DNA of 64,000 nucleotides, taken from the IMG/VR virus record IMGVR_UViG_3300027374_000252. One strand, written 5' to 3'. The notes beneath the pieces were generated by a model. That model was not told the origin of the DNA and ran no database searches. It saw nothing but the letters and a program-made list of their open reading frames with translations. How positions within the stretch are numbered: position 1 is the stretch's first letter; the number at the start of each line of letters is the position of its first letter. Below, one piece after another: positions 4,449-22,193 of this stretch. The stretch comes from an uncultured virus (IMG/VR IMGVR_UViG_3300027374_000252). Lineage: Duplodnaviria > Heunggongvirae > Uroviricota > Caudoviricetes. Both the position numbers and the translations under genes were made by a program.

Positions 4449-7400
4449 ATGCCAATATATAGAGTAAACGGTAAGAAATATGATATTCCGAAGGATAAGG
4501 TTTCGAAATTTGAGAGTGTGTATCCGGATGCTACAGTTGATATATATGACAATGCCTCGGGAAAGGGATATGAGATTCCTGTGTCAAAGGTAGGGAGGTT
4601 CAAGAATCGGTTTCCCAAGTGGTCGTATGAAAAGGGTGCGGTGGCTTCTTATACGGATGTGACTGATGTTTCGGAGGCGGGAGAGGTCGGTTCTTCTGTG
4701 GAGCAACAGGAAGCATGGAAGCCGACCCCAATGCAGAAAGCGTTTATGATGGGGTCTGTTCAATCGTCACTGAACAGTTTCAAGGCGCACACGGATGCTT
4801 CAATGGAGCGATTGAAAAACACCTCTGAGTATTACAATCGTGGCGGAGCTTTCTCCGGGAATAAGCCTGTCAAGGGAGATATGCGCTACAACGAAGACGC
4901 CGGGAAGATTGAGCAGACATATCTCACTCCGACAGGAACAGCCACAGCCGACAAGTTTGCCGCAGAGCGTGAAACGAGAGCCTACAACGATTATGTGGAC
5001 AACATGACCGTATCCGGACAACTTCGCCGTGCAGGTAGAGACCTGTCAGACCTCCTCCGTAAAAGGGAGGAACGAGTGAAAGCCATTCATGACAAATGCG
5101 CAGAAGACCAAAAAAATAATAAAGCACCTCTTGCCGCTGTCCTTGGCGCACAGACCTATGTGCCATCCATTCAGTCAGACCCGGAATATCGGGCATTGAC
5201 CGCTGCTATCCATCAAGCAGAGAAGCGTGTCCAAACTCTTCAGCACGAAAGCGACCGACAGGACGGCAAAGATGTTGGCTTTTGGAGGGGCTTCGGTGAA
5301 GTTGTCGGTGATATAAAGACATGGGACTTCGGTTATAGCGGATTGATGGATGCTATGACAATGCTTGATGCCACTTCTAAACCGTCACCCAACCGTCCGG
5401 CAAAGACCGATGCACAGAAAGAGGCTGAGCAAATCATGTTGGAGCAGACATACGAGGCTCAACAGGCACAGTCAGCATACGGACAAAATGATTCGTTTTG
5501 GAACCGGGCCGGTGTCATGACGGGCGAAATGTTGCCATTCATGCTTGACTTTGCCATCATGGGCGGTGCAAAAGGTGGCACATCTATGGTCACAAGAAAT
5601 CTTGATGCCGTCCTGTTGCGTAGTCTCCACAAAGCAGCTCCAAAGATTGCAAGAAACAAGGCTGTGCAGTGGACAACAAAGGCACTGGGAGCAATGCCCG
5701 AAGATTTGCTCTACCGTGCTCCACTCATGACCAATACAGTGCAGGGCATGAAGACAGCATCTGACATCATTGACCGCAAACTTGGAGATGTTGTCATCCG
5801 TGACGATGGTACATACGACTTCTCCAATGACAAGACTTGGGGAAGCGCAGTATGGCAGGGTGAAGCCAATGCAATTATTGAGAACTATTCGGAAATGTTT
5901 GGCACACACCTTGAGGGTGTGCTGTCGTTAAAGACCGTCGGGAAACTCGCTGATACATTCGGAGCAAAGCGTCTCAGCGGAATACTCACCAAAGCAAGCA
6001 ACAGCGAGCTTGCAGGTATTGCCGGAACAATGCAGAAGCACCTCAATCAACTTGGAGTATCTGACTATTTCGGTGAGGTAGGTGAAGAATATTACGGTCA
6101 GTTGTGGCGCACGATGCTCAATCTTGATGATGCCTACAAACAGAATCCGGATGGATCACGGACAAATCTTTTTCTTGACGGACAGTTCCACGGTGATATT
6201 TGGGGAGGCATGGCTCTTTCCATGGGACTTATGGGTGCAGGAAAGTATTCCATATCTGCGGCCGCATATGGTTCAATGAAACACCGTGTGAACAAAACCG
6301 ATACACGAGCATCCGAAATTTTCACTCCAGAAATATGGAATGGTTGGAGAGAACGCATTGACGGCACAACCAATGACAAAATCGGCGAAATGGCAGAGGC
6401 TATTGTCGCAGACCCGACATTGACCGATGAACAGAGAACTGCCGCCATGAACTATATGGAAGCCTCTCTGAATCTTCGTGGCTTCAACCTCGCAAGCGTG
6501 GCCCGTCAGCGTGGAGGTGAAATGTCGGAAGATGAAGCAGCAGCCAATGAGAGTTACATGGACGGCTATACCGCTTCCACTCCGCAGGAAATGAACGATG
6601 CAAAAAAGATGCTTGACTTACAGCGAGGGCGTCTTGCATCGGCATTGTCTGAAGATTTAGTACAGGACTTCGACAACGACCCCATAGGAGCATTGTCCGT
6701 CACTCATGACCCGGAACTCAGACACATCGCATCTGATTATGTCAATGCGAAGGCGGTATATGACGGCATGATACAGCGGGTGCGTGACGATGTGGATGGA
6801 CGTATCGCCCAAAGCAATGCCATGATTGACAGTCGCATCAACCGGGAGACGGGCATGATACAACCTGCTACTATGAAAGCGGATGACCGCAGGGTGTATA
6901 TTGTCAATGGCACTGTAGCCATGTTTGAGGACGGTACTGGTGTTGATACCAACAATTCAAGCGAGAGCATTATAATCCGTGATGCCGAGACGGGTAAAGT
7001 GGAGTTTGCCGACCCTACGCAGTTTCACAGTGTGGATGAAGCGGTTGATGCCGAGACCGAAAAAGAAGCTGCACGCAAACAAATCATTGATGAAATAGCC
7101 GTTGCCGCCGCCAACAATATAGACGGTGTTCTTTCTTTCACGCCCGGCGAGTCATATTCTGTCCTTGACATTGACGGCAATCCGGAAGATATTGCCATAC
7201 TCGGACAACCCACTGACGAGAACGGTATTCCCCTTGACGGCTATGTCGACATTCAGTATCCGGACGGAACGATTCAGTCCGTAGCCACGTCAGACCTACA
7301 ACAGTGGGTTGATGCCGCCAACACTCGGAGAGTAGAGCAGTTTGACAATGAACGGCAAGCGCAGAGAGCCGCTGAGGACGAAGCGGTACGGCAGGCAGAC

Positions 7401-10400
7401 CAATCGGGACTGAGCAATCCTAACCGCCGGACTGACCTCATGCCCGATGATTATAAAACGCCGTATGATAACCGTCCTGTCAGAGCCACACGCTATATCG
7501 AAAGCGAGAATGGCACAGGCGGCACGTTGTATCAAGACGAGAATGGGAACGATGCAGTTGTCATTGCCGCTATTGATGACAATAACTATGTCGGCTACTT
7601 CCGTGAGTATGACGAGCAGGGAAATCCAACCAACCGATGGAGTGCCAAATTTCAAAACGGCAGTGGCATAAGGGAGAATCACCGAGATATGATGCTGACT
7701 GCTCAGGAACTCCTTCCTGCCGGACATGAACTGACAGAACACACAAGTGTTTCGACTGACGGACTGCGTAACCTCGCCAATCAGTTGAAGCATGGATATG
7801 AGCTGCAATATGATGAACAGGGCAACATCGTCACAACCGAAGTTGCCGTGAACATGATGGCAAGAGACAACACGCTTGGTCTTTCCGATTATGAGCCGGG
7901 AAGCATTGACCCTGCAAGGGTATCAAGTGAAGAATATAGGGAAGCTGCATCACGTCTTATCCCCTACATGGAGGCACTCGGTCTTTCCAAATTTAATATC
8001 CATTGGGAAGACGGTACGATGTATGTTGATCATCCTATACTGAAAAGGGCGGATACACCTCAGCAGGAAGTTCAACCTGTCGTTACCGAAAATGCAGAAA
8101 CCGTTCCCAATTCTGACGAAAACACCGAAATTCCCACGGAAAATCGTGATTTAGCCTCGGAAACCGTTCCCAAAACTGAAAATTCTGTAGAAAACGTACA
8201 ACAGACAGCCGATGACGGTTTCATTCCCATTGACCCGGCATTGATTAACAGCAGGACTGACGAAAACGGGAATATCATTTGGGATGAACCTCAACAGGAG
8301 CAGAGCCGGAGCGAGGAACATAAGCAGTCTGCATTGTCCCGTGTGCCACTCAATGAGAAGGGTAAACCGGATTTCGGAGCAGTTGACGCAGATACTGCAT
8401 GGGATGCCATTGTTGAGAAAACCTCCAATGAAGCAATGGCACAGTCTTTCGCTGAAAATATGGTAGCCGCATCAGAAGCGGAACTGAAGAAAGCAGAGAA
8501 AGTAAAGACCCAACCCACGACAGACCTTGACGAGTTTATTGCCGCCGACAGTGAACGCATAGCCAATATAGACCGTGCCAGGACTGCACTCGACCATTGG
8601 AAAAAGGTTGCAGGGACTAAACAGCGCAGACAGGCAGAGGCGGATGCCGTCCGAAGTGCAGAAATGCGCAAACGTGCAGAGGAGGCTCGTATCAAGGCTG
8701 AGCAGGAACGTGAGGAGCGTGAGGAAGCAGAGCGTTGGGAGGCTGAGAAGCGCGGGCTTGATAAGAGACTGCGTGATACTGCGGAATCGGTGCGCCATGT
8801 GCCGGAGGCGGTCGAGGTGCTTAAGGATATGAATCCACAGTCGATTGACGAGGTTGCGTCGTGGCTTCTTTCGCGTCATAAGGTGATTTGGAGCGACACT
8901 AAGAGGGGTGGTGTCAGAATTAAATATGGCGTTGCGAGTCATACCGGTTTTGGAGAGGGAGAGCGCAGGAAGTTGTTCGGGCTATTTGCTTCGGCAGAAA
9001 AGGGTGGCATCTCTCTTGATCGGCTTTCGGAGGATTTGTTTAAGGAGGCATGTGATGTGTTTGGCGTGGCGTATGACAACAAGTCGGCACGAGATGCACT
9101 GATTGAACGTATCGGTGAGGCGCGTACGATGGGAGATATACTCAACTATATAGCCAATAATCGTATTGCCCGTGCCACACGTGTTGCGGCTGAGTTTGAT
9201 GCTTATGAGGCCGAGCAGCGGGAAGAGCATTATCAGGAGGCATATCATATGGGCTATGATGAGTATGAGGCTTATGAGGGGCAGATGCTTGTCGAGATGG
9301 AAAATGCTTTCCGGAATTTTGATGAACAGGAATTTTATGGTAATATTGCGGATGAATTAGTAAATCAGCAAAGATATGGACTTAGAAGCAATGAAGAGGC
9401 TGTCGGCGAAAGAGAAGTCGCAGCTGATGACGGAGGCGTTGAAGTTTTGTCTGGAACGAAATCTGGTGAAGCCGGAGGAGCGCCGAGCAATGTTGTCGGA
9501 CAAGAGGTATCAGGCGGAGCTGGCTATGCGTTGCGTGATACGTCGGGAGGCTTACCTGAAGGCGCATCCCGAGGGTTAGATGGCCCTGGTGGGGGTGTTG
9601 TAGATGCGGGCGTCAGGATTTCGGCGGATGATTTGGCGAAGCTCGGAGAGCGTGACCGGCGCGATGTAGAGGATTATCTGTCGAGGCGGTGGAGCTGCGA
9701 TGTGGGTGTTATTGGCGATGTCCGTGATATTGAGTCGCTACCGGAGAATTCGAGAGCGGATATTGTTGATGCTTACGAAGATGGTGAAACATGGGCTATA
9801 TATAGTCGCGGTGATAAAAAAATCTATATCTTTGCGGGGAAGAATGGTGATGAATCGTTGAGCGGAGTGCTTCTGCATGAGAATGTGCATGCGGTGGTTG
9901 ATATGCTTGGTGATGATTGCCGTGAGTTTCTGGAGGCGTATGCGGGTCAGATTAGCGCTCTGCCTTATACAAATGGTGTCTTCGGAGGAATGTATGCCGA
10001 TATTCAGGATTTATATGCTGAGGATAAGGCTGAGGAGGAATTTCTGGCATACTCTCTTCAATATGTAGAACTGTATAATAAGGTATTAACTAAGATAAAG
10101 AAATCGCTTGATGAACCGACACTCCGTTATCTTGAAGATAAGATTTTAAGTAAATTATATGAGCCAGCAGGAAGAACCGATAAAGGTGAAGCAGTACACG
10201 ACAATTCACGCGTTCAATGGTCGCGCGTACAAGAAGATAATGGATCGCGTGAAAGAGAACCACATGAGATATCAGGAGGAGCATCCGGAGAGCGCAGAGA
10301 GTCCGGATGGGAATCAGAAGCCGGAGGACAACCAGTAGGTGAACGATATGAGTCAACAGAAGAATACCCCGGAAGAGTTGCCGAAAGTGAAGCAGTACAA

Positions 10401-13400
10401 GAATATACACGCGCTCAATGGCCGCGCGTACAAGAAACTGTCGTCGATACTAAGGGAGGCCTTCAGGGAGGAGAGCGCAGAGAGCGCAGAGAACTCGGAG
10501 AAGGAGGAGAGCGCGGAGATGAAGGAATAGCTGAGGAGGCTGAGATTGCATCGGAAGAGGATGCGCTTAACTCTCGCATTGAGGTTAAGGATGATGACTG
10601 GACTGAGGAAGGTGGTTACACTCCGACCCTCAAACGCACTGTTGTCATTGACGGCATTCATAATGTGACACAGGTCGATGCTCCTAATGACAAGGGGGAT
10701 TATACAGGCTCAATATTTGAGTATGACGGCAAGGCATTCGGAGACCTCCGAGAGGTAATATCTTATATAGACAGCTCACGACCTGCTACGATAGGAGAAC
10801 AGGTAGCCGAAGCGGAAGCTGAGGTGAACACCACTCCGACCGATGGGCAGAAGAAAGCCGGGAATTACAAGAAGGGTCATGTGCAAGTGGGAACATTTGA
10901 CGTGACCATCGAGAATCCGAAAGGCTCAAAGCGCAGCGGCACAGACCCGGACGGCAAGAAATGGGAAACCACCATGACCCACACCTACGGCTATATCCTT
11001 GGCACTAAAGGTGTGGACGGTGATCATATTGACGTTTATATTTCTTCCGACATAGACGGATGGAACGGCAGGAAGGTGTTTGTCGTTGACCAATATAATC
11101 CCGATGGCTCATTCGATGAGCATAAGGTTATGCTTGGCTTCAATGACAAAGTGGATGCCATACAAGCCTATCTATCCAACTATGAGGATGGATGGGAGAA
11201 AGGACGCAGGCTCGTTTTCTCTACCGTCAGCATAGAGGACTTTGAGAAATGGATTGAATCCTCACACCGCAAGCAGAAGCCTTTCAAAGAATACAAGAGC
11301 GTACACATCGAAGAATCACATGAGGGAGGCAAGGACGAACTTCACGATGAGGTAAGGCAGTGGCTCGGCAAGAAAGGATTAGAGCCGGATGAAGCATCAC
11401 GAAGCGCAGTCATGCGCTATTTCAGGATCGGCTACAACCGGGCAGGAAAAATCCTCAACGCCATAGCTGAGGAGAATGCCGCCAACCAACATGAGGAGGC
11501 AACCCCGGCACAGGAACAAACCACCTCAACCTCAACAGAAGGCTACACCATAGTGTCAAAGCCCTACACCAACAAGCAGGGTAAGACGCTCGACACCCAT
11601 CTTGTAACCTTTGACCGGGACTTCTCAAAAGAGGAGCAGAAAAGAATCCGCGCCATGGCAAAGGAGAAGAAGGGTTGGCCAGACCGCGAGACAGGAGGAT
11701 ACATGCTGCGCAGCCGAGAGGACGCGGAGGAATTTGCCGCTTCCGTCATGAACATCAATGCGACTTCTACCGCTGACGCTCCTGTCAGCCTAAGCGACAT
11801 TGAATCGGCAATAAAACCCGCAGAAACGGAAATTTCCTCTTCACCTGCCGATAAACCTGCTGACGCAGAGGCTAAGCCGGAGAAGAAGCCGAGCAAGTGG
11901 GTGGACGAGGAAGACGCTGAGGAATTCGAGCGACTGAGAAACATTCTCCGCAACGGACTCGGACAGCTCAACATGGGTTTCCCTCCGGAGCTACTCTATG
12001 CTGGAGGGAAGATGAGTTACCTCATGATGAAACACGGCGTGAGGAAGTTTGCCGAGTATGCCACCGCTATGATAGAGGAACTCGGTGATGCGATACGGCC
12101 TCATCTGAAATCCCTATACAACTTCACTCGATCTACAGAAGAAGTCATGGAGAGCGAATGGGCAGACGAGCTTACACCATTTGACGAGGTAATGAAGTTT
12201 GATACCGCCAACTTCGGGAAACCCAATGTCGATGCTATGGCTACCGCTGAGAATGTTGTCGCAGAAGAAGCGAGTCAACAGCATCTGGAAGATGCCGTCA
12301 ACACCATCAAGGACTCCATAAGGCAGAATCCGGACGGAAGCACCTCACAGACAATTAACGAAGGTGGAACGGAGATTGAAGTAACAGAGGGTGATTTCAT
12401 CCCCGGTGTCTATCCTCCAATAGACGATAAGCCTACAAAGCCGGGAAAGAAGAAGCCATCCAAGTCCAAACCTGCCGAGCAGAAGCCGACCACCGGACAG
12501 CTCGACCTCTTCGAGGAGGAAGAGGAGCAGATAATCAATGACATAATCGATGATACCACTCCACCCGAACCGAAGCCGGAGGCAGAACTTTCGGGAGACT
12601 CGGCAGACTACCAGGAGCGCACAAGACAGGAGCGAGATTTGGTAGATGATATTGTTATTGAAATCATGAAGCGCACAGACATGAGGGAGCGAGGCGATGA
12701 AAAGGTTACACTCACTATGCGCGACATCAGGGGAATGCTTGAAAACTACTCTCTTCTCGCGGACATATCCGCAACCGACTTGCAGGAACTTGTAGAGAGA
12801 GCCATGACCATACTGACGCGCACGGCTGCAAAGACCTGTCAACTTGACCCGCGCAAGGGATATGACCGAGTAGTGGCTTACTATAATATGCAGCCAAGCC
12901 TCAATGCAAGAGACAGCGAAAGGTTGATAAAACAGCAGTACAGCACCCCTACGCCTTTCGGCTACGTCATGGGTCAGTTTGTCAATGCCAAGAATGATGC
13001 AAAGAGCATTCTTGAACCGAGCGCAGGGAACGGAGCATTGACAATCATGTTCAATCCCGCCACCGTCCATGTGAACGACATAGACGAGCGTAGGCTTGAA
13101 AACCTCCGTACACTTGGCTACGGCACAGTTACGGCACAGAACGGACTCCTGCCATTCGAGGGGGAGAAAGTTGACGGTGTTCTTACCAATCCACCTTTCG
13201 GGAGCGTGACCGAAAAGGTATATGACGGAGTATTCAAGATTTCCTCCCTTGAGGGACAGATGGCTATAAACGCCCTCGACTCCATGAAAGACGGAGGACG
13301 AGCCGCCATAATCATAGGTGGCAACACAAGTTATCGCACAAACGGGTCGATGAATCCGAAAGATGCGGCATTTTTTGGTTATCTTTACAGCCACTATAAT

Positions 13401-16400
13401 GTATCTGACGTTATCAATATAAGCGGCAAGGCACTCTATGCGCGAAACGGCACAGGCTATGACGTGCGTATGATATTGATAAACGGACGGAAGACAGGGG
13501 AATTTTCGCGTGTCTATCCTCCTGTAAAGTCGAAAGCCCGCGCTGAACAGGTAACAACATTCGATGAACTTTACAAACGAGTACAAGATGATATACAGCA
13601 AGTTTTCCAAATGGGGAATAAGCCTGCCGATGTGCAGCCCGAAGCAGAGTCAACCGCTGACGGAGGAACGAGTACGCCTGTTCGTAGCGGAGGCAATAAC
13701 CCGAACAAAGGAGCAAGGGAACGACCCGACACAACAGGCTATGGAAGCGGAAGTGCATCCGGGTCCAATATCGAGCAACCTTCATCCGGAAATGGAGGAA
13801 GCAGACCTGTTGGAGTGGATAATGGAGACGCAGGAAATGCAGGAGGCACTGACAATGTTCAGAGACCTCAATCCTCAGCGTCCGGAAGCAATGGAAGTGG
13901 AAGCCCACAAAATGACGGAGGAAGAAGTGGAGGCAACGGACGTGACGCAGCTTCTTCTCGACCTAACAGCAACGGAGAGCGACTGGCAGTAAAGCCTGAC
14001 CTTACCACAGAGAAAGTCCCATATCCCAACCAAAGCGACAACGGCTTCACATTGCTGTCGGTCGTACCTGCGGCACAGGCAGAGGTATTGCAGAGAAGCC
14101 TTGCCGAGATTGGAGATGTTGACCAATTCCTTGTAGATGAACTTGGCTATTCAAGCAAGGAGGAACTTTACAGTTACCTTGCAGCCGAGCAGATAGACAG
14201 TGTAGCACTCGCCATACATCAGATGAATAAAGGGAACGCCTTTATCATCGGCGATATGACAGGTGTAGGCAAAGGGAGACAGGGAGCAGCCCTAATCCGT
14301 TATGGAGTAAGGCAAGGCAGATGCCCGATTTACTTCACACAAAAACCAACTCTTTTCACAGATAACTACCGAGACCTTGCGGATATCGGGAGCAGTGAGC
14401 TCCGACCGTTCATCATTGCTACGGATGATAAGGAGCATACGCCATATATCAGAGATTTCAACGGTAATGTGATTCATAAACTTCCTACAAAGCTGGAAAG
14501 GGCAATGGTCTTCAAGTATATCATGAAGAACGGCCGATTACCGAAAGGATACGACTATGTGATAACCACATACAGCCAGATCCAGAATGGTAATCTTGAT
14601 TATGAACCCAAGGAAGATGGATGGGTGACCGTCCCTAAAAAATACGGTAAGGGAAAGAGCGAGACAGCTAATGACCGGAAAGGTCAGGAAAGAAGAAATG
14701 TACTTGCGCGACTGGCTATGGGGACTGCTCCGGGTCAGGGTAATATTGTCATACTTGACGAGAGTCATACTGTCGGTGGTGACAGCGGAAGCGGACGTTA
14801 CATGCAGATGCTTACCTCTAATGCGTATGGTGTAACGTTTATGTCTGCTACCTTTGCAAAGAGAGCTGGCAACATGCCCATCTATGCACAGCGCACGGCA
14901 ATATCGGAAGCCGGAGTGAACGCCAACGAACTTATTGAGGCTATAGCCAAAGGGGGCGTGACCTTGCAGGAAATCATGTCAAAGCAGTTGGTGGAGTCCG
15001 GTCAGATGATACGCAGGGAGCGCAGTTTTGAGGGTGTCACCATTGATTGGCTCAGCGTAGAGGAAGAGACGGACCGCAAGCAGAGAGAGCAGTTTAACGA
15101 GGTAGCCAACATCTTCAACAGTATCCGGAATTTCCAAAATGACTTCATCAAGCCTATCATAGACGGCATGAATGAAGATGCTGCCGAGACGGGAGGCACC
15201 GTAGGACAGACACAAGGCACTAAGGATATGGGCGTAAGGAATACTCCTTTTGCCTCCAAGATGTATAATCTCGTCAATCAGTTACTCTTCGCCCTCAAAG
15301 TAGATGCAGTGGCAGACCGGGTAATAGAAAATCTCAGCAACGGATTCAAGCCTGTAATCAGCTTCACCAATACAATGGAGGGATTTCTTGCCTCTGCACC
15401 GAAAGGTGTAGCCATGGACGAAGTGCCAAACTTCTCTCTTACTTTGATGAGGGCACTCGATGGAGTTATGCGATTTACCGAAAATGATGCAGACCAGAAC
15501 AGTGAGGGAGGTCAAATTACAGTGGGGCAGCTATCGCCGGAGGGACAGGCTGCATACAATGCCATCAAGGGAAAAATCATGAACCTCAGCGCAGACCTGC
15601 CTATCTCTCCTATGGATGCCATACGCATGAAGATAGAGGAGGCAGGATACACAGTAGCCGAAATAACAGGACGTACCACACAGCTGAACCGCACTGAAGA
15701 TGGACGCTACATTGTAGAGGGCAGGAAAGACCGCGACAAGAAAGCCGCCATGCGCGACTTCAATGCCGGGAAGCTCGATGTACTCATGATAAATAAATCC
15801 GGTTCTACAGGAATCTCCCTTCACGCCTCAAGCAAGTTTGAGGATCAGCGTCAGCGTGTCATGGTATTCGCTCAATTCCAAAGCGACATCAACGATGAGG
15901 TTCAGATGAGAGGACGTATCGACCGAAGCGGACAGGTAGTCAGAGGTCGATATGAATACATCATGTCCACGATTCCGGCAGAGCAGAGAATCCAAATGAT
16001 GTTTAAGGCTAAGTTGAAAAGTCTCGACGCCAACACCACATCATCGCAGAAATCGAAGTTTAATGAAATGGAGATTGTTGATTACCTCAACAAGTACGGT
16101 GATGAAGTGGTATGGGAATACATGAAAGAGCATCCGGAACTTTCAGACCGTCTTGGAGACCCTCTTAAAATGCTACAGGATAAAGACGAGGACGGAGCAG
16201 CCCGCACATCTGAAAAAGAGGACTCCTCCCAAAAGTCAGACTGTGCAGGAGAAATCTCCCGCTATCTTGCCTTCCTTTCTGTGGAGGAACAGGACGAAAT
16301 CTTCAAAGAGATTACAGAGGCGTATAAAGTGAAGATACAGCTTCTTGACGACGCAGGAGAGAATGACCTTGAAATCACCACAATGCCATTGAGAGCCGAG

Positions 16401-19400
16401 ACCAAGAGCAAACAAATATGGCATAATGGAGAGAACCCCGGCAGCGGCAACGCTTTCGCTGACAACACTTATGTTGAAGAAGTGGAAGTTGACGTGCTTA
16501 AAAAGCCTATGAAGCGCACAGAGATAGAGGATATGACCCGTAAACTCATGGGCGATAAGATAACCACCGCTGCCGAGTACGACCAAACGCGCTATGGCAT
16601 GAAGGATGGTGAACTTAATTGGGGCCGTTATGCCGACAAGAAGATTGAAGAAGTCAATAATTTCTTCAGTGCCAAAGCTGATGATGCAGTCGCAAAGATG
16701 AAGGAAACCGGAGAATCGCGAGTTTCCAAAGCCAGGGAGAAATCCGTCAAGGACGCTATCAAGGCACGCGCCAAAGGGGAAAACACATTCAGCGACCAAG
16801 AGATAGAAGCTCTCGCAGATGTTGTAGCCAAGGAAGCGCAGGACAAAGAGGAAATGAAGCAGTATAGGCGGCGTGAGGAAATAAACAACGTCCGCGACCA
16901 AATCACGCATCTTCTCGGCAGACTGAGAGCCGGACACATCTATGTAGTTCCGCAGGACTTGAAACAGGCTACCGCCGATATGTTCACTCAGACTTTCGGC
17001 ACATTCGTTGGCTTCAAGTTCAATAAGAGTTACACCCTTGGTTCATCGACCGCCATATTCGCCACACTTGACGGAAGAAGAAAGGTAGAACTTGCCCTTA
17101 ACGATAAGGCCATAGAAACTATTATACGATGCACTGATACAGCACTCCGATATTCGCCAAAGGAGATCAATGCTATCTCAATGGATAATTGGGACAGTAA
17201 GGTTCCCACCAAAACACGTCAGACACGCCATATCATCACAGGCAATCTACTTCAAGCACTCGTTGACACTGAAAAGGGAGAAAAGACTAAGGGCAACCTT
17301 ATTAGTTTCTCCACCAATGACGGCAATACCCGGCAGGGCATTCTCATGAGTGAAAACTTCAAGCCTACCGACCTCCGCAGCAGTGTACCTTTGCGCTCAC
17401 GTCTGAAACAGATACAGGACGGCATAACAGTTGTCAGTGAGAATGGAGACGTGCAGATTGAGAGAGTTGATTTTGATTGGAAGCACCGGGGCGAGTATGA
17501 GCTTAAAGTACCGAAGTCAAAGCAACGCGGAGGAATCTACTCCATGCACACGGATTTATTGAAGCTCATTGACGGTCATAATTTCAACAGCAAGGGCAAC
17601 TATATGATAGGATATATCCTGCCGGAAAATCTTGCCAAAGTTGTTGATATGCTCAGCCGTGCGCCTTTCAATCTGACAGTGTTGGAGGAATCAAAGTTGA
17701 CAGAAACCACCGATTCTTCTCAGCGCAATGTTGAAGACGATAGTGACCTCAGATTTCGCATTCGTGAAGAGGAGCCTCCAAAGCAGACAGGTATAGGATA
17801 TGAACCTCAGAAACGTCAAACCGGAGCAATAACAGATGAGCAGATTAATGAACTCAACTCACAGTTTGCCCAAAGAGAGCGTGACGGATATGGCGCATAC
17901 TCGGATGCTGAGGTTTCTATGGAGAATGACCCGTGGAGCAAGGCTTGGGGTGAAAGCATCCGGACGAAACGACAGCAGAAACAATTTGCTGAAAGAGAGC
18001 GTAAACGTATGCGAGACCGTGCCAAATCTCTATCTTCCGTTCTTGGCATAGACATCGAAGTCATTGAAGACGCTTCTTCCCTAAAAGGCAAGAAGCAGAG
18101 AGCCAAAGGATGGTATGATACCAAGACCGGGAAAATCACTGTTGTTGTCGGCAATCATAATTCAGCGGCAGACATGGAGGCTACCATACTCCATGAGGCA
18201 GTCGCACATCATGGTTTGCGTCAGTTGCTTGGCGAACATTTTGACGAATTTCTTGATAAGGTATATGAAGCCGCCGACAATGGCATCAAGGAGCAGATAG
18301 ACCTGTTGGCATCCCGTAACGGTTGGAACAGGCGAGTTGCTACTGAGGAATATCTTGCCGGACTTGCCGAGGAGACAGAGTTTGACCGGGCAGAGGAACG
18401 TGTCAGTGGATGGTTTGACAAAATCAAGCGATTCTTCATTGATATGCTTTTCAAGGCAGGGTTCAAGCACATAAAACCCGGAAGCATCGGAGACAATGAA
18501 CTTCGGTATATCCTTTGGCGTAGTTATCAGAACTTGGCTAATCCCGGTCGTTACCGTGCCTTTGAATGGGAAGCGGAGGATGTGGCCATGCAGTATAAGC
18601 TGCAAGTGGGAGAATACGGACATAGAGAAGATGCTACGGAGAGAAAAGTGGCGGAGGCAGGAGAACTGTATGAGCTGAACGAACGGTTTAACAGGGAACT
18701 TGAAATGCAGATTGACGGGACCTTACCAGCAGGGCATGTTTATAATATGGGTATGCCGAGCAAGGAGTTGCTGTCAACCGGTATAGCTCGTCTGCCAATA
18801 AGGTTGTCAGCATCAGTGCTGAATGTGAAATCGAATCTTGAGAGGCATGCTTATGATTTGTCGTCAGTAAGAAATCTTGTGAATGCCATCCAAAAGCCTT
18901 GGGCTATATTTTCATATGGCGACAAGGGGAAAGCACAGAATCTGATAATAGGAATAGAGGATGGAGGGCGTCAATTTCTCGTTGGAATCTCCATAAATCC
19001 GACAGTAAAGGGGGTGACATTGGAGATAAACAGCATCAGGAATGTGTTCCCTAAGAATAATCATGAGTGGATAAACTGGATAAATGAAGGGAAACTGCTT
19101 CGGGTAGATGGTAAAAAAGAAATCCAAGCCATCATAGCCAAGCTCCGAATGAATCCCGTGGCCTTTGACTATGTTGACTTGGATAATGCCACAAAGATAG
19201 TTGAAAATTTTGAGAATCCAACTATCGGAGAGCAGAATAATAACAACGGAGGAGAAGATACTGTTCTATTCCGTGACGGGGACTTCACGCCAAGAGACCG
19301 GAAACTGGCGGCTGATGTATATGAGAAGATGCTGAGCCGTGGGAGCTGGCAATTTCGTGAAGCAACGCAGGATTCTATGCTTGGACTCAAAACCTTATAT

Positions 19401-22193
19401 GAATCAATTCTTGGCAGCAATACCCGTATTGAGAATGTTGCCGGGTATGAGAACGCATACCTGTATGAGAACCGGATGAGCAGTGCCAACAATGGAGAAC
19501 AGCATCAGTATTTCAGTCGTTTCATGAAGCCGTTGCTTGATAGCATCCATAAACTTTGCGGAAGCAAGGAGCTTGACCGTCGTATCCTTACGGACTACAT
19601 GATGGCGAAGCATGGTCTGGAACGTAATGAGTATATGCGCAATGAAGCTGCCGCCAACGGAGAAGATACCGAGCGTGATTTCGCCGGACTCTGTGGTCTT
19701 ACCGGAGAGGACGATTGGCAGGTAGCCGAGACCGTTGCCCAGCAGATGGTGGATGATTATGAATCAGACCATGATACTGCCGAGTTGTGGGATAATGTGA
19801 AGAAAGCCACAAATGCCACTCTTGAAAAAATTTATCTCAGCGGTCTAATCAGCGAGGATACCTACAACAAGGTTCTTGGTATGTATGATTTCTATATTCC
19901 TCTTCGCGGATGGGACGAGACTACAAGCGATGAGGTCTATGGCTATCTTACAAGTAAAGATGGTCCACTCATGGGAAGTGTGTTCAAAACAGCAGAGGGA
20001 CGTGAGAGCAAAGCCGATGATCCAATCGCAACCATTGCGATGATGGCAGATGACGCAATCCGTCAAGGTAACCGCAACATCATGAAACAGCGGTTCCTCA
20101 ACTTCGTGCATGGTAATCCGAGTGACCTCGTTAGCGTCAATGAGATGTGGCTACAGCACAATGATGTCACAAACGAATGGGAGCCTGTATTTGCAGACCT
20201 GCAACCGGACATGACCCACGCTGAGGTTGAGAGCGAGATAGCCAAGTTTGAGGCAAAGATGGAAGCACTGAGGACAGCAGAACCTGACAAGTATAAAAAG
20301 GGAGGTGACGCAAGAAACATCCCTTACAAGGTCGTGCGTGGCAACCTCAACGAACATCAAGTATTGGTAAAGCGTAACGGGCGTACTTATGTCATAACCA
20401 TAAACGGCAATCCAAGGGCGGCGCAGGCATTGAACGGACTTACCAACCCCAACGTGGAGATGGGCGGTGTCATAGGAAATATTCTTAAACTCGGAGAATA
20501 TGTTAACCGTCATTTGAGTGCTTTCTATACTACCCGTAACCCGGATTTCGTTGTCAGCAACTTCATGCGAGATATGCTTTACTCCAACTGCATGACATGG
20601 GTCAAGGAGAATCCTCGATATGCCCTTCGCTTCCATAAAAACTTTGGCAAGGTCAATCCTCTTACACTCCGTAGGCTACTGTCAAAATGGGAGAATGATA
20701 ATCTCAGCGACAGTAATTACCTTGAAAAGATGTTCAAGGAATTTATGTTGAATGGAGGAGAAACAGGCTATACCTCAGTCAAAGACATCGAGGGACACAA
20801 GCGAACCATTGCTTCTGAACTGAAGAAACAAGGTAGCACCGGACGCAAGGCATGGAACGCATTAGGTATGCAACTTGATTTGCTGAATCGAAGTGCCGAA
20901 AACTGCGCACGTTTCGCAGCTTTCCTTACCTCTCGTGAGATGGGTCGAACACTTGACCGAAGCATCTATGACGCAAAAGAAGTGAGTGTGAATTTCAACA
21001 AGAAAGGTAGCGGTGGCAAATTTGTAAATGCAACCGGACAGAAATTCTTAGGCAAATTAGGCTCGTATCTCGGAGGCGGCGGACGAATAGCCTTCGTCTT
21101 TTGGAAGGCAGGTATTCAAGGCATGACCAATTTCGGACGTGCAGGGAAGCGCAATCCGGGCAAAGCCATTGGGGGTACCACTGCATTATTCACACTCGGC
21201 TATGTCATTCCCCTTCTTGCTCAAATGCTTGGCGGTGGTGACGGTGACGATGATGATAAGAACGCATATTACAATCTTCCGGAATATGTGCGCCGCAGTA
21301 ACATATGCTTCAAAGCAGGGGAACAATGGATAACTATTCCTCTTCCTATCGAATATCGTGCCATATATGGTATGGGAGAACTTGCCTGTGGAGTAATCAG
21401 TGGGAACGAGCGATACAGTAATTCGGAACTGACTCGTCAGATGGCATCACAAATCAGCCAAGTAATGCCTCTTGATATGCTTGAGGGTGGAGGCGGCATA
21501 TCTCCGTTCATACCAAGTGCATTCAAGCCTATGACCGAAGCCTATATCTTGAACAAAGGCTGGACAGGACTTCCGGTGTATAAGGATACCCCTTATAACA
21601 AGAATGATCCAGAATGGACGAAAGCATATCAGAGCGCAGACCAACATCTTGTGGCTTTCACACGATGGCTCAATGAAACAAGTGGAGGCAATGACTATAA
21701 AAAAGGGACGATAGACATCAATCCGGCTAAACTTGAATATCTTCTTTCGGGAACATTCGGCGGTGCTGTCAGCACAACCGGGAAACTAAAGAAGATGGGC
21801 GAAACAGCTTTAGGTACGCGAGAGTTTGAATGGCGCAATATGCTTCTCGCCAACCGTGTTATAAAATCCGGAGACGAACGCACGGCAAACCGTAAACTCC
21901 AAAACGAGTATTACAAATACTTGACAGAGTATGAGGAGACCAACCGTCTGCGCAAGAAATACGAAAATGCAGCAGACGATGGAATACTTGGTTACGCTGA
22001 AAGAGTAGATTTTCTTTACAACTCTCCCGAATATCTACGCTTTGAAATATTTGAAAAGTATAAGCCGGATATAGATGCAATTCGAGAGGAAATAAAGGAG
22101 GAAACCAATCCCGAAGCAAAAAAAGAGTTGCAGGAAGAACTCTTTTCAACCATGCGTGAACTTGTAGATGAACTTCACGATGTCGGTAAGTAA
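4449..22193 (+). CDS. Giant polyvalent (DarB-like) virion protein, 5914 aa: zincin peptidases, iPPase-like, FtsK-gamma-like wHTH, N6-adenine MTase, strawberry-notch/SNF2 helicase, BECR-type nuclease-like, LPD38-like C-terminus
   Basis: HENVH 9876-9890; IENPKGSKRSG..YGYI..DGDHID ~10910-11030; LEPSAGNG ~13011 and NPPF ~13188; GDMTGVGKGRQ ~14250, DESH ~14757, SATF; HEAVAH ~18192; YYNLPEYVRR..IPLP ~21270-21350. Confidence 0.9.
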   Translation: MPIYRVNGKKYDIPKDKVSKFESVYPDATVDIYDNASGKGYEIPVSKVGRFKNRFPKWSYEKGAVASYTDVTDVSEAGEVGSSVEQQEAWKPTPMQKAFMMGSVQSSLNSFKAHTDASMERLKNTSEYYNRGGAFSGNKPVKGDMRYNEDAGKIEQTYLTPTGTATADKFAAERETRAYNDYVDNMTVSGQLRRAGRDLSDLLRKREERVKAIHDKCAEDQKNNKAPLAAVLGAQTYVPSIQSDPEYRALTAAIHQAEKRVQTLQHESDRQDGKDVGFWRGFGEVVGDIKTWDFGYSGLMDAMTMLDATSKPSPNRPAKTDAQKEAEQIMLEQTYEAQQAQSAYGQNDSFWNRAGVMTGEMLPFMLDFAIMGGAKGGTSMVTRNLDAVLLRSLHKAAPKIARNKAVQWTTKALGAMPEDLLYRAPLMTNTVQGMKTASDIIDRKLGDVVIRDDGTYDFSNDKTWGSAVWQGEANAIIENYSEMFGTHLEGVLSLKTVGKLADTFGAKRLSGILTKASNSELAGIAGTMQKHLNQLGVSDYFGEVGEEYYGQLWRTMLNLDDAYKQNPDGSRTNLFLDGQFHGDIWGGMALSMGLMGAGKYSISAAAYGSMKHRVNKTDTRASEIFTPEIWNGWRERIDGTTNDKIGEMAEAIVADPTLTDEQRTAAMNYMEASLNLRGFNLASVARQRGGEMSEDEAAANESYMDGYTASTPQEMNDAKKMLDLQRGRLASALSEDLVQDFDNDPIGALSVTHDPELRHIASDYVNAKAVYDGMIQRVRDDVDGRIAQSNAMIDSRINRETGMIQPATMKADDRRVYIVNGTVAMFEDGTGVDTNNSSESIIIRDAETGKVEFADPTQFHSVDEAVDAETEKEAARKQIIDEIAVAAANNIDGVLSFTPGESYSVLDIDGNPEDIAILGQPTDENGIPLDGYVDIQYPDGTIQSVATSDLQQWVDAANTRRVEQFDNERQAQRAAEDEAVRQADQSGLSNPNRRTDLMPDDYKTPYDNRPVRATRYIESENGTGGTLYQDENGNDAVVIAAIDDNNYVGYFREYDEQGNPTNRWSAKFQNGSGIRENHRDMMLTAQELLPAGHELTEHTSVSTDGLRNLANQLKHGYELQYDEQGNIVTTEVAVNMMARDNTLGLSDYEPGSIDPARVSSEEYREAASRLIPYMEALGLSKFNIHWEDGTMYVDHPILKRADTPQQEVQPVVTENAETVPNSDENTEIPTENRDLASETVPKTENSVENVQQTADDGFIPIDPALINSRTDENGNIIWDEPQQEQSRSEEHKQSALSRVPLNEKGKPDFGAVDADTAWDAIVEKTSNEAMAQSFAENMVAASEAELKKAEKVKTQPTTDLDEFIAADSERIANIDRARTALDHWKKVAGTKQRRQAEADAVRSAEMRKRAEEARIKAEQEREEREEAERWEAEKRGLDKRLRDTAESVRHVPEAVEVLKDMNPQSIDEVASWLLSRHKVIWSDTKRGGVRIKYGVASHTGFGEGERRKLFGLFASAEKGGISLDRLSEDLFKEACDVFGVAYDNKSARDALIERIGEARTMGDILNYIANNRIARATRVAAEFDAYEAEQREEHYQEAYHMGYDEYEAYEGQMLVEMENAFRNFDEQEFYGNIADELVNQQRYGLRSNEEAVGEREVAADDGGVEVLSGTKSGEAGGAPSNVVGQEVSGGAGYALRDTSGGLPEGASRGLDGPGGGVVDAGVRISADDLAKLGERDRRDVEDYLSRRWSCDVGVIGDVRDIESLPENSRADIVDAYEDGETWAIYSRGDKKIYIFAGKNGDESLSGVLLHENVHAVVDMLGDDCREFLEAYAGQISALPYTNGVFGGMYADIQDLYAEDKAEEEFLAYSLQYVELYNKVLTKIKKSLDEPTLRYLEDKILSKLYEPAGRTDKGEAVHDNSRVQWSRVQEDNGSREREPHEISGGASGERRESGWESEAGGQPVGERYESTEEYPGRVAESEAVQEYTRAQWPRVQETVVDTKGGLQGGERRERRELGEGGERGDEGIAEEAEIASEEDALNSRIEVKDDDWTEEGGYTPTLKRTVVIDGIHNVTQVDAPNDKGDYTGSIFEYDGKAFGDLREVISYIDSSRPATIGEQVAEAEAEVNTTPTDGQKKAGNYKKGHVQVGTFDVTIENPKGSKRSGTDPDGKKWETTMTHTYGYILGTKGVDGDHIDVYISSDIDGWNGRKVFVVDQYNPDGSFDEHKVMLGFNDKVDAIQAYLSNYEDGWEKGRRLVFSTVSIEDFEKWIESSHRKQKPFKEYKSVHIEESHEGGKDELHDEVRQWLGKKGLEPDEASRSAVMRYFRIGYNRAGKILNAIAEENAANQHEEATPAQEQTTSTSTEGYTIVSKPYTNKQGKTLDTHLVTFDRDFSKEEQKRIRAMAKEKKGWPDRETGGYMLRSREDAEEFAASVMNINATSTADAPVSLSDIESAIKPAETEISSSPADKPADAEAKPEKKPSKWVDEEDAEEFERLRNILRNGLGQLNMGFPPELLYAGGKMSYLMMKHGVRKFAEYATAMIEELGDAIRPHLKSLYNFTRSTEEVMESEWADELTPFDEVMKFDTANFGKPNVDAMATAENVVAEEASQQHLEDAVNTIKDSIRQNPDGSTSQTINEGGTEIEVTEGDFIPGVYPPIDDKPTKPGKKKPSKSKPAEQKPTTGQLDLFEEEEEQIINDIIDDTTPPEPKPEAELSGDSADYQERTRQERDLVDDIVIEIMKRTDMRERGDEKVTLTMRDIRGMLENYSLLADISATDLQELVERAMTILTRTAAKTCQLDPRKGYDRVVAYYNMQPSLNARDSERLIKQQYSTPTPFGYVMGQFVNAKNDAKSILEPSAGNGALTIMFNPATVHVNDIDERRLENLRTLGYGTVTAQNGLLPFEGEKVDGVLTNPPFGSVTEKVYDGVFKISSLEGQMAINALDSMKDGGRAAIIIGGNTSYRTNGSMNPKDAAFFGYLYSHYNVSDVINISGKALYARNGTGYDVRMILINGRKTGEFSRVYPPVKSKARAEQVTTFDELYKRVQDDIQQVFQMGNKPADVQPEAESTADGGTSTPVRSGGNNPNKGARERPDTTGYGSGSASGSNIEQPSSGNGGSRPVGVDNGDAGNAGGTDNVQRPQSSASGSNGSGSPQNDGGRSGGNGRDAASSRPNSNGERLAVKPDLTTEKVPYPNQSDNGFTLLSVVPAAQAEVLQRSLAEIGDVDQFLVDELGYSSKEELYSYLAAEQIDSVALAIHQMNKGNAFIIGDMTGVGKGRQGAALIRYGVRQGRCPIYFTQKPTLFTDNYRDLADIGSSELRPFIIATDDKEHTPYIRDFNGNVIHKLPTKLERAMVFKYIMKNGRLPKGYDYVITTYSQIQNGNLDYEPKEDGWVTVPKKYGKGKSETANDRKGQERRNVLARLAMGTAPGQGNIVILDESHTVGGDSGSGRYMQMLTSNAYGVTFMSATFAKRAGNMPIYAQRTAISEAGVNANELIEAIAKGGVTLQEIMSKQLVESGQMIRRERSFEGVTIDWLSVEEETDRKQREQFNEVANIFNSIRNFQNDFIKPIIDGMNEDAAETGGTVGQTQGTKDMGVRNTPFASKMYNLVNQLLFALKVDAVADRVIENLSNGFKPVISFTNTMEGFLASAPKGVAMDEVPNFSLTLMRALDGVMRFTENDADQNSEGGQITVGQLSPEGQAAYNAIKGKIMNLSADLPISPMDAIRMKIEEAGYTVAEITGRTTQLNRTEDGRYIVEGRKDRDKKAAMRDFNAGKLDVLMINKSGSTGISLHASSKFEDQRQRVMVFAQFQSDINDEVQMRGRIDRSGQVVRGRYEYIMSTIPAEQRIQMMFKAKLKSLDANTTSSQKSKFNEMEIVDYLNKYGDEVVWEYMKEHPELSDRLGDPLKMLQDKDEDGAARTSEKEDSSQKSDCAGEISRYLAFLSVEEQDEIFKEITEAYKVKIQLLDDAGENDLEITTMPLRAETKSKQIWHNGENPGSGNAFADNTYVEEVEVDVLKKPMKRTEIEDMTRKLMGDKITTAAEYDQTRYGMKDGELNWGRYADKKIEEVNNFFSAKADDAVAKMKETGESRVSKAREKSVKDAIKARAKGENTFSDQEIEALADVVAKEAQDKEEMKQYRRREEINNVRDQITHLLGRLRAGHIYVVPQDLKQATADMFTQTFGTFVGFKFNKSYTLGSSTAIFATLDGRRKVELALNDKAIETIIRCTDTALRYSPKEINAISMDNWDSKVPTKTRQTRHIITGNLLQALVDTEKGEKTKGNLISFSTNDGNTRQGILMSENFKPTDLRSSVPLRSRLKQIQDGITVVSENGDVQIERVDFDWKHRGEYELKVPKSKQRGGIYSMHTDLLKLIDGHNFNSKGNYMIGYILPENLAKVVDMLSRAPFNLTVLEESKLTETTDSSQRNVEDDSDLRFRIREEEPPKQTGIGYEPQKRQTGAITDEQINELNSQFAQRERDGYGAYSDAEVSMENDPWSKAWGESIRTKRQQKQFAERERKRMRDRAKSLSSVLGIDIEVIEDASSLKGKKQRAKGWYDTKTGKITVVVGNHNSAADMEATILHEAVAHHGLRQLLGEHFDEFLDKVYEAADNGIKEQIDLLASRNGWNRRVATEEYLAGLAEETEFDRAEERVSGWFDKIKRFFIDMLFKAGFKHIKPGSIGDNELRYILWRSYQNLANPGRYRAFEWEAEDVAMQYKLQVGEYGHREDATERKVAEAGELYELNERFNRELEMQIDGTLPAGHVYNMGMPSKELLSTGIARLPIRLSASVLNVKSNLERHAYDLSSVRNLVNAIQKPWAIFSYGDKGKAQNLIIGIEDGGRQFLVGISINPTVKGVTLEINSIRNVFPKNNHEWINWINEGKLLRVDGKKEIQAIIAKLRMNPVAFDYVDLDNATKIVENFENPTIGEQNNNNGGEDTVLFRDGDFTPRDRKLAADVYEKMLSRGSWQFREATQDSMLGLKTLYESILGSNTRIENVAGYENAYLYENRMSSANNGEQHQYFSRFMKPLLDSIHKLCGSKELDRRILTDYMMAKHGLERNEYMRNEAAANGEDTERDFAGLCGLTGEDDWQVAETVAQQMVDDYESDHDTAELWDNVKKATNATLEKIYLSGLISEDTYNKVLGMYDFYIPLRGWDETTSDEVYGYLTSKDGPLMGSVFKTAEGRESKADDPIATIAMMADDAIRQGNRNIMKQRFLNFVHGNPSDLVSVNEMWLQHNDVTNEWEPVFADLQPDMTHAEVESEIAKFEAKMEALRTAEPDKYKKGGDARNIPYKVVRGNLNEHQVLVKRNGRTYVITINGNPRAAQALNGLTNPNVEMGGVIGNILKLGEYVNRHLSAFYTTRNPDFVVSNFMRDMLYSNCMTWVKENPRYALRFHKNFGKVNPLTLRRLLSKWENDNLSDSNYLEKMFKEFMLNGGETGYTSVKDIEGHKRTIASELKKQGSTGRKAWNALGMQLDLLNRSAENCARFAAFLTSREMGRTLDRSIYDAKEVSVNFNKKGSGGKFVNATGQKFLGKLGSYLGGGGRIAFVFWKAGIQGMTNFGRAGKRNPGKAIGGTTALFTLGYVIPLLAQMLGGGDGDDDDKNAYYNLPEYVRRSNICFKAGEQWITIPLPIEYRAIYGMGELACGVISGNERYSNSELTRQMASQISQVMPLDMLEGGGGISPFIPSAFKPMTEAYILNKGWTGLPVYKDTPYNKNDPEWTKAYQSADQHLVAFTRWLNETSGGNDYKKGTIDINPAKLEYLLSGTFGGAVSTTGKLKKMGETALGTREFEWRNMLLANRVIKSGDERTANRKLQNEYYKYLTEYEETNRLRKKYENAADDGILGYAERVDFLYNSPEYLRFEIFEKYKPDIDAIREEIKEETNPEAKKELQEELFSTMRELVDELHDVGK
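9376..9579 (+). CDS. Candidate nested (+1 frame) 67-aa helical protein inside the giant gene
   Basis: MDLEAMKRLSAKEKSQLMTEALKFCLERNLV...; A/T-rich leader; main frame here is a low-complexity G/E/S linker. Confidence 0.55.
   Translation: MDLEAMKRLSAKEKSQLMTEALKFCLERNLVKPEERRAMLSDKRYQAELAMRCVIRREAYLKAHPEG
10159..10338 (+). CDS. Candidate nested (+1 frame) 59-aa protein, paralogue A (absent from ORF track)
   Basis: MSQQEEPIKVKQYTTIHAFNGRAYKKIMDRVKENHMRYQEEHPESAESPDGNQKPEDNQ*; leader TTTTAAGTAAATTAT-ATG. Confidence 0.65.
   Translation: MSQQEEPIKVKQYTTIHAFNGRAYKKIMDRVKENHMRYQEEHPESAESPDGNQKPEDNQ
10348..10530 (+). CDS. Candidate nested (+1 frame) 60-aa protein, paralogue B
   Basis: MSQQKNTPEELPKVKQYKNIHALNGRAYKKL...; starts 9 nt after the stop of paralogue A; synonymous differences in this frame. 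Confidence 0.65.
   Translation: MSQQKNTPEELPKVKQYKNIHALNGRAYKKLSSILREAFREESAESAENSEKEESAEMKE
13564..13992 (+). CDS. Candidate nested (+1 frame) acidic protein between MTase and helicase domains (alternative start 13588)
   Basis: Open frame spans the N/G/S-rich linker of the main frame; amphipathic acidic helices (MEEADLLEWIMETQEMQEALTMFRDL). Confidence 0.6.
   Translation: MNFTNEYKMIYSKFSKWGISLPMCSPKQSQPLTEERVRLFVAEAITRTKEQGNDPTQQAMEAEVHPGPISSNLHPEMEEADLLEWIMETQEMQEALTMFRDLNPQRPEAMEVEAHKMTEEEVEATDVTQLLLDLTATESDWQ

Follow-up and report, generated by a model that had tools for sequence, protein, structure and literature searches.

Four nested reading frames in a giant phage gene

The window analysed here is the whole stretch of 64,000 nucleotides from an uncultured virus of the Caudoviricetes (IMG/VR record IMGVR_UViG_3300027374_000252). 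It carries a giant polyvalent virion-protein gene (4449..22193, + strand), a single open reading frame (ORF) of 5914 codons located just 5' of the portal gene. Within this host frame, called the main frame below, four nested ATG-started ORFs had been predicted, and all of them were found in the +1 frame relative to 4449-22193: ORF1 (9376..9579; 67 amino acids, aa), ORF2 (10159..10338; 59 aa), ORF3 (10348..10530; 60 aa from its ATG) and ORF4 (13564-13992; 142 aa), each on the + strand. The frame of ORF3 also has a GTG start at 10339, 5' of the ATG at 10348. The claim that the nested ORFs coincide with low-complexity linkers was borne out, since the main frame has few hydrophobic residues wherever one of them lies. 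For ORF4 the frame and the stop were as predicted, but the ATG at 13564 is missing in most homologues and the conserved ATG is located at 13588. ORF4 is described below from this second ATG (13588..13992, +; 134 aa).

The position of the ORFs relative to the domains of the main frame was predicted correctly, the identity of these domains less so. ORF1 and ORF2 had been said to flank a peptidase with the motif HENVH. A motif scan located this sole HExxH motif of the main frame at 9876..9890 (+), between the two ORFs, but no Pfam family was obtained for the region 9582-10148, which leaves the term 'peptidase' without family support. ORF4 indeed separates a methyltransferase (MTase) region from the helicase, the identity of the former being given by a sub-threshold N6_Mtase match only. 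Most leaders of the nested ORFs had been described as A/T-rich, which holds for two or three of the four: the A+T content upstream of ORF1 to ORF4 is 67%, 83%, 47% and 47%, respectively, and 63% upstream of the second ATG of ORF4.

Statistics on the single sequence did not distinguish the nested ORFs. Twelve +1 ORFs of the giant gene start with ATG and reach 59 aa or more, and on the antisense strand ORFs extend to as much as 421 aa. Uninterrupted +1 runs of at least 59 codons were slightly enriched (25 versus approximately 17.5 ± 3). The segment 13564-13989 was free of +1 stops in 26% of the synonymous permutations, because this region is T-poor; the nested ORFs contain 12–20% T versus 21% gene-wide. 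By such measures the nested ORFs are unremarkable, and their support comes from homologues.

Conservation and selection in the +1 frame

Homologous giant genes were collected from IMG/VR with main-frame queries, giving one set of 50 loci and one of 32 loci with 10-kb flanks, gathered by the MTase-helicase junction. One of the 32 (L080) is truncated, leaving 31 loci that cover the ORF4 linker. The relatives comprise the lineage of the window itself, two clades at about 70% and about 60% identity, and one gene at 47%. The alignment of ORF4 consisted of 35 rows, some of them being the same contig fetched twice. The ratio of nonsynonymous to synonymous substitutions (dN/dS) was calculated by the NG86 method for within-clade pairs, seven for ORF4 and eight, all of the 60% clade, for ORF1. 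Four ungapped cross-clade pairs of ORF4 (nucleotide identity 0.35–0.39) were excluded, because internal indels misalign them. Frequent +1 stops together with a lack of conserved starts, named by the original prediction as evidence against itself, were looked for in the homologues and were not observed for ORF1 and ORF4.

The +1 frame of ORF4 was open in all 31 loci covering the linker, with TAA at both ends. Counted from the conserved ATG, ORF4 encodes 134 aa in 31 of the 35 rows, 135–138 aa in four others and 159 aa in L081, and the length of 134 aa is kept even where the identity of the +1 translation drops to 29–35%. Compared with the 70% clade, the main-frame linker aligned without gaps at 52–56% identity, and the +1 translation reached 67–76%. 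Divergence was also resolved by main-frame codon position. In the flanks it was highest at position 3 (0.4–0.6) and low at positions 1 and 2 (0.03–0.15), while inside 13560-13980 the order was position 1 (0.38–0.53), then position 2 (0.15–0.30), then position 3 (0.12–0.20). As read from these alignments, divergence inside ORF4 follows the pattern normal for coding in the +1 frame, the flip falling exactly at the ORF4 boundaries. The dN/dS values obtained from the seven pairs were 0.10–0.41 in the +1 frame versus 0.96–3.07 in the main frame. Across clades, the nucleotide identity of the ORF4 region was 35–39% in ungapped alignments. The ORF4 product is acidic (isoelectric point, pI, 4.3). AF2 run on the +1 alignment of 19 sequences predicted an alpha/beta fold with high confidence (pLDDT 89.6, pTM 0.86), made of a beta-hairpin, six helices and a short strand.

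Sixteen close proteins were identified for the ORF4 family, among them one from a Prevotella assembly that bears the name 'unknown'. When 1.84 billion representatives were searched with a profile, 32 proteins were obtained, 27 of them at E 1e-10 or better. Nearly all of these 32 representatives are 130–160 aa long and none displays a Pfam domain. A methionine is present at the usual start in at least 90% of 33 family members. Genome matches were obtained in Bacteroidales assemblies (Prevotella, Porphyromonadaceae, Phocaeicola), and one further match lies on a scaffold labelled Staphylococcus, a label which was not trusted. No free-standing copy of ORF4 was found among 28 viral loci, which correspond to the known giant-gene contigs plus L085. 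In six of seven further loci (six genome loci and L085) the host frame was open across the whole locus.

A few members of the ORF4 family deviate from this scheme. On a scaffold of Phocaeicola coprophilus DSM 18228 (L116, an old draft), many separate ORFs take the place of the giant gene, while the 134-aa nested ORF is intact; the breakage reflects either a decaying prophage or homopolymer assembly errors. Two members, P0017 (201 aa) and P0038 (264 aa), carry protein-like N-terminal extensions of 68 and 127 residues, respectively, and P0038 has no methionine at the usual start. A third one, P0033 (313 aa), follows the main frame through the C-terminus of the MTase into the linker and then switches to the ORF4 frame, which it keeps up to the ORF4 stop. 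This fusion is most simply explained by an indel of one nucleotide in its contig, as an error or a natural variant. In the main frame, a small motif (V/L-D-N ... A-G-S) at 13800-13850 is kept in all clades. It overlies the helix of ORF4 that is conserved best and probably results from the constraint on the +1 frame.

The product of ORF1 is basic (pI 9.3) and predicted to form a helical bundle. Its +1 peptide matched the +1 frame of L057 (36% identity, E 4e-14), and further +1-frame matches were obtained in L054/L034, L036/L040/L050 and L061/L067/L075. The main-frame peptide encoded by the same DNA gave no matches in the same homologue loci. A hidden Markov model (HMM) of the ORF1 family matched the +1 frame in 26 of the 32 loci plus the window, with its own ATG and stops in every match. 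For the eight pairs of the 60% clade, dN/dS was 0.04–0.44 in the +1 frame versus 1.52–4.82 in the main frame. AF2 on the +1 alignment (16 sequences) predicted four helices with a pLDDT of 87.7 and a pTM of 0.69. The family counts 10 database proteins. In most relatives, ORF1 sits 245–1400 nucleotides upstream of the InPase domain.

The specificity of the signal was addressed over the whole gene. A comparison of 141 alternative-frame stop-to-stop ORFs with 11 full-length homologues showed that only the ORF4 and ORF1 regions are conserved at least as well as the main frame. In a sliding scan for the codon-position flip, applied to whole-gene codon alignments of 13 gene pairs, nothing but ORF4 and the ORF1-type linker stood out; in seven of these pairs, with 359–537 windows each, 3–11 windows were flagged, all of them at ORF4 or the ORF1-type linker. 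On these alignments, two nested genes per giant gene appear as a family-wide pattern and not as a feature of all linkers. Three loci without the ORF1 family (L053:6927-7091, L055:6615-6779 and L058:7314-7478) contain another +1 ORF, conserved and about 55 aa long, in the low-complexity linker 5' of InPase, and this ORF was also flagged by the scan.

Both frames are maintained. If the +1 protein alone were selected, 6.5–10 main-frame stops would be expected across ORF4, with a probability of finding none of at most 0.001 in six lineages, and 4.4–6 across ORF1. The main frame was nevertheless open through the nested ORFs in every intact locus. Open against expectation, it therefore points to true dual coding and not to a mis-called giant ORF. 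The comparisons thus indicate purifying selection on the +1 frame and not on the main frame, with both frames kept open. It had been proposed that the linkers look disordered because they are overprinted, and the data agree with this: the +1 dN/dS is 0.04–0.44 versus about 1 or more in the main frame, and position 3 of the main frame is the most conserved. The spacer looks rich in G, S, N, E and R and of low complexity, because freedom from stops is the sole constraint visible in the main frame. Judged by conservation and predicted folds, ORF4 and ORF1 are to be regarded as genuine +1-frame protein genes. In a broader sense, the giant gene is probably dual-coding in some of its linkers, and the small +1 proteins would be produced by internal initiation.

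ORF2 and ORF3 are the two copies of a tandem duplication of about 189 nucleotides (63 codons; 10147..10530, +), the unit of which consists of a +1 stop, three codons, the ATG and the nested ORF. Over 56 codons, dN/dS between the copies was 0.28 in the +1 frame and 1.26 in the main frame, and none of 1000 simulations of random mutation with both frames kept open reached a +1 ratio as low. Diverged homologues were not found: the protein database gave one match, 90% identical to ORF3, and the metagenome scan gave two identical copies on one contig. Since they were found in no other lineage, the evidence for ORF2 and ORF3 consists of this one comparison of copy with copy. Both are considered probable genes, a reading which the ratios make reasonably likely.

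The giant gene and its phage

The phage represented by the window is temperate, as indicated by an integrase at 357-1508, and is a phage of gut Bacteroidales. In the main frame of the giant gene, the InPase domain (10845..11258, +) was identified with a Pfam E-value of 7e-53. Further downstream follow a Strawberry-notch-like helicase (14178..16379, +), with AAA_34 at E 2.8e-18 and Helicase_C_4 at E 2.3e-25, and the domains MuF_C and LPD38 (18831..21842, +), with E 3.4e-12 and 4e-39, respectively. The giant protein was called virion-associated because of these last two domains. A Pfam match to FtsK_gamma was below the cut-off.

The putative N6-adenine MTase region (12630..13601, +) contains an NPPF motif at 13188. 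The N6_Mtase profile matched it with E 0.0018 and 18.1 bits, below the Pfam cut-off of 20.4. This region is 55–76% identical across the relatives, and its conserved C-terminal helix overlaps the start of ORF4. It is spanned by an antisense ORF of 421 aa (12345-13610, -). This candidate gene was rejected, as its identity in the homologues was 36% versus 62% for the main frame, which identifies it as an ordinary antisense shadow ORF.

The portal gene (22333..24315, +; phrog_156, E 4e-97) lies immediately 3' of the giant gene, and annotation of the gene neighbourhood gave the large terminase (24951-27071, -) and the major head protein (28892-30334). With InPase, LPD38 and MuF_C above the Pfam cut-off and a virion and packaging neighbourhood (portal, terminase, head), the giant gene product corresponds, by its predicted domains, to a phage-type polyvalent protein in the sense of Iyer et al. 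2017 (PMC5512222). Two further loci, L117 and L118, are occurrences of the same stretch on a single metagenome contig (179,007 bp), separated by about 60.9 kb. Such a duplication would fit a concatemeric assembly, with a phage genome close to 61 kb.

Expression, function and origin of the nested genes

The start regions of the nested ORFs were compared with the remainder of the gene by the minimum free energy (MFE) of 50-nucleotide windows centred on the ATG, taking 1180 windows of the giant gene as reference (-8.5 ± 3.4 kcal/mol). Values of -0.2, -1.1 and -0.9 kcal/mol were obtained for ORF1, ORF2 and ORF4, placing them within the least structured 0%, 1% and 1% of the windows, respectively. 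The starts of the giant, portal and capsid genes are comparably unstructured (-1.5, -1.7 and 0.0 kcal/mol). The start of ORF4 was also of low structure in all five homologues tested (0–4%). The Asp codon which supplies the ATG of ORF4 is GAT in all 35 rows versus 50% of the Asp codons gene-wide. A +1 stop occurs 1–11 codons 5' of the conserved ATG of ORF4 and, in most lineages, 1–5 codons 5' of the ATG of ORF1; in L081 and L060 the stop is located one codon before the nested ATG. Shine-Dalgarno-independent initiation is known in Bacteroidetes. The small proteins would accordingly start internally in this manner, at unstructured A/T-rich sites on a long late mRNA, and might be accessory factors made alongside the injected polyvalent protein. 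Permissive linkers would allow such nested genes to persist and even to duplicate in frame, as in the 189-nucleotide unit of ORF2 and ORF3.

Matching RNA was detected in mouse-gut RNA libraries from three runs of one study (X5, X6 and X9). Contigs 100% identical to the window covered 13444-14040 at a depth of 4–14, and the region of the HExxH motif and ORF2/ORF3 (9621-10674) was matched at lower depth. No contig in these runs covered 10675-13443 or 14041-14500, although uncovered parts prove nothing. The loose ends of the contigs are adapter sequence. Scans for sigma-70 promoters and for terminators remained at background, and no terminator-like site was found after ORF4.

Several observations weigh against dual coding with internal initiation. 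The longest +1 run of the gene (145 codons) lies within the range of codon shuffles (132–152; P 0.25–0.50), and about 12 of 15 hydrophobic-poor linker regions have no conserved +1 ORF, only about three carrying one. Both ends of ORF4 overlap conserved main-frame segments, so that the main frame may account for the conservation of the 10 or so residues at either end and possibly also for that of the ATG. ORF2 and ORF3 are confined to the window's own lineage in the viral loci, the protein database and the metagenome scan; their sole alignment was guided by the +1 peptide and may favour that frame, and the start of ORF3 is merely at the 12th percentile for low structure (-4.5 kcal/mol). The RNA evidence consists of library contigs only, which cannot show starts, strand or frame. 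TAnnTTTG, the Bacteroides-type -7 promoter motif, does not occur on the + strand within 300 nucleotides 5' of ORF1 or ORF4. Finally, function was assigned neither by Pfam, PHROGs (best E 0.026–0.34) and PADLOC (one match, E 0.036) nor by PDB sequence profiles (best E 0.11), ESM Atlas, which gave no usable match, Foldseek or VIA-align. The models of ORF4 and ORF1 had no Foldseek match at E 0.001 or better in PDB and BFVD, and the best Z-score of the ORF4 model by VIA-align against 48,161 chains was 2.9, where typical unmatched models reach 7–8; missing database and fold matches do not prove novelty.

These points have to be set against the other explanations of the nested ORFs. Chance would suffice if T-poor, purine-rich linkers lacked +1 stops by composition and encoded nothing, and it agrees with run lengths within the range of shuffles, with the 0.26 probability of finding no stop in 13564-13989, with the low T content of the ORFs and with the dozen ATG-started +1 ORFs of comparable size in the gene. 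It cannot explain low +1 dN/dS next to main-frame values of about 1 or more, a codon-position flip limited to the ORF boundaries, confident AF2 folds, or a length of 134 aa kept at 29–35% identity. The comparative sequence data thus refute chance for ORF1 and ORF4, and as a general account it is very improbable; for ORF2 and ORF3 alone it is perhaps a possibility, though not the favoured one. A constraint on the nucleic acid, such as an RNA structure or a DNA site, could likewise make the synonymous sites of the main frame the most conserved, as could any overlapping element, but it is hardly conceivable given the strict 3-nucleotide periodicity in the +1 order of position 3, position 1, position 2, bounded by the ends of the +1 ORFs, the confident protein folds from the +1 alignments, and a family still recognised by HMM where nucleotide identity between clades is 35–39%. 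Programmed +1 (or -2) frameshifting would produce truncated polyvalent isoforms ending in a folded +1 domain. Programmed frameshifts are common in phage structural genes, the +1 domains are located exactly at domain boundaries, where truncated isoforms make sense, and P0033 joins the C-terminus of the MTase to the C-terminal half of ORF4, although most simply by a one-nucleotide error or variant. Against it stand the +1 stops close to the nested ATGs, those of L081 and L060 leaving almost no room for a slip site, as well as the start methionine of nearly all family members, the unstructured start regions resembling initiation sites, and the lack of a recognisable slippery heptamer on reading 13540-13600. 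Internal initiation is preferred because of the unstructured starts and the +1 stop close to the ATG, and frameshifting is regarded as quite unlikely.

Other explanations accept the nested genes and differ on their role. In the original prediction, each product inhibits or chaperones the adjacent domain, silences it in the producing cell and shuffles with it. In agreement with this, ORF4 was located at the MTase-helicase junction in all 31 loci covering it, with its start embedded in the C-terminal helix of the MTase, a stoichiometric partner would be well served by being expressed in cis from the same mRNA, and lambda Rz/Rz1 provides the precedent of a nested +1 product working with the product of its host gene. 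The constancy at the junction is, however, not independent evidence, because the loci were collected by that same junction. For ORF1, travelling with the domain was contradicted: its family occurs in 26 of the 32 loci, a homologue of the HExxH region in three, and 23 loci have the family without such a homologue. In L057 this homologue lies beyond the InPase domain and not beside ORF1. No similarity to known inhibitor, immunity or chaperone families was found, nor did any homology or fold match assign such a function to the nested products, which leaves that part of the proposal unsupported. Complex prediction for ORF4 with the MTase region gave a score of 0.00, without controls, and counts neither way. 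Taken as a whole, the model of cognate partners is unlikely. The nested ORFs could also be moron-like genes with internal promoters, expressed at another time, for instance in lysogens, and serving an unrelated role such as superinfection exclusion or anti-defence. A weak hint is given by the RNA contigs, which cover the ORF4 region and not the adjacent parts in the same runs; the phage is moreover temperate, and the product of ORF4 shares its strongly acidic character with several anti-restriction proteins. But the contigs, from one study and with adapter at their loose ends, cannot rank parts of the gene or show transcript ends, and neither an upstream TAnnTTTG on the + strand nor a terminator-like site after ORF4 was present, so that independent genes of this kind are also judged unlikely. 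With low confidence, the best guess for the nested products would be a role in assembly or as partner, and an independent anti-defence role of the acidic ORF4 product is about as likely.

The origin of the nested genes was considered from codon usage. Relative to the phage's own usage, the correlation was 0.55–0.59 for the +1 frame and 0.27–0.36 for the main-frame linker, a comparison which is confounded by amino-acid composition. Codon usage closer to that of the genome is the usual criterion for the older frame of an overlap. By codon usage and predicted foldedness, the small +1 genes may thus be the older frame, but as a mechanism the birth of a gene de novo in a linker poor in stops is the easier one. 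That the giant gene grew by engulfing older small genes in its linkers, with products that serve the injected effector in cis, as its chaperone, inhibitor or co-packaged factor, is a speculative and rather unlikely scenario. If true, this would be a new way for multidomain proteins to arise, and phages would have a hidden coding capacity that gene callers miss.

Fully nested genes on the same strand are known in phages from lambda Rz/Rz1 and from phiX174 (B in A, E in D). As in these cases, a small +1 gene with its own start and stop lies here wholly inside a larger one. The host is however a 17.7-kb multidomain virion gene with two to four nested genes confined to disordered linkers, the nested frame is the selected one, and for the products of 134 and 67 aa no relatives could be detected. 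The lipoprotein Rz1 is a partner of Rz; for the ORFs described here, such a link is hypothetical. Polymorphic toxin-immunity cassettes show a similarly tight linkage between an effector domain and a small gene. Immunity genes follow the toxin gene without overlapping it and co-vary with the toxin domain, unlike ORF1, which overlaps its host gene and does not co-occur with the HExxH domain. P1 DarB is a virion-packaged MTase-helicase anti-restriction protein, and the giant protein, likewise large and virion-associated, resembles it in domain order, with a putative methyltransferase region followed by a helicase. A gene of Bacteroides phage BKO1-TP3 annotated as 'DarB-like antirestriction' shares only the InPase region with the giant gene, which was also the only region matching GenBank phages and PLSDB plasmids in DNA comparisons. 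A tblastn search with ORF4 and ORF1 against 50,697 GenBank phage records gave no match, and the nested ORFs were not seen in deposited DarB-like genes.

The features of viral overprinting, as reviewed in PMC8227390, are one DNA read in two frames, one product ordered and the other disordered, and asymmetric selection, and they are also those observed here. Most documented overprinting concerns small RNA or single-stranded DNA viruses, unlike the tailed temperate phage of about 61 kb considered here. With phage-type polyvalent proteins (Iyer et al. 2017, PMC5512222) the giant gene shares the hallmark domains, namely InPase, LPD38, MuF_C, a putative MTase and the helicase, and it neighbours the portal gene. 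By a term search, nested genes are not described in PMC5512222, where the words 'overlapping' and 'linker' have no occurrence and 'nested' is used only of a hairpin. In the literature outside subscription journals, no earlier description of nested or overlapping genes in polyvalent proteins was found. Overprinting as such is well known; no description was found of several structured +1 genes that are confined to the linkers of a giant polyvalent virion protein and whose frame dominates selection.

In tailed double-stranded DNA phages, long genes that lie wholly within another on the same strand have rarely been backed strongly by comparison and structure, and such genes are systematically missed by standard gene callers. 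In the present family, the linker of a 5914-aa protein is effectively a passenger: the nested frame dominates selection, which is why the spacers are of low complexity and yet conserved in length. At least two orphan protein families are added, one of them with a confident predicted fold without PDB neighbour. The scan for the codon-position flip produced no false positives in thousands of windows and is applicable to the giant genes of phages and conjugative elements. Because a change without effect on the host-frame protein is enough to remove the nested start, the system is clean and testable. It bears on the origin and persistence of overlapping genes and on the extra factors that accompany injected polyvalent and anti-restriction proteins.

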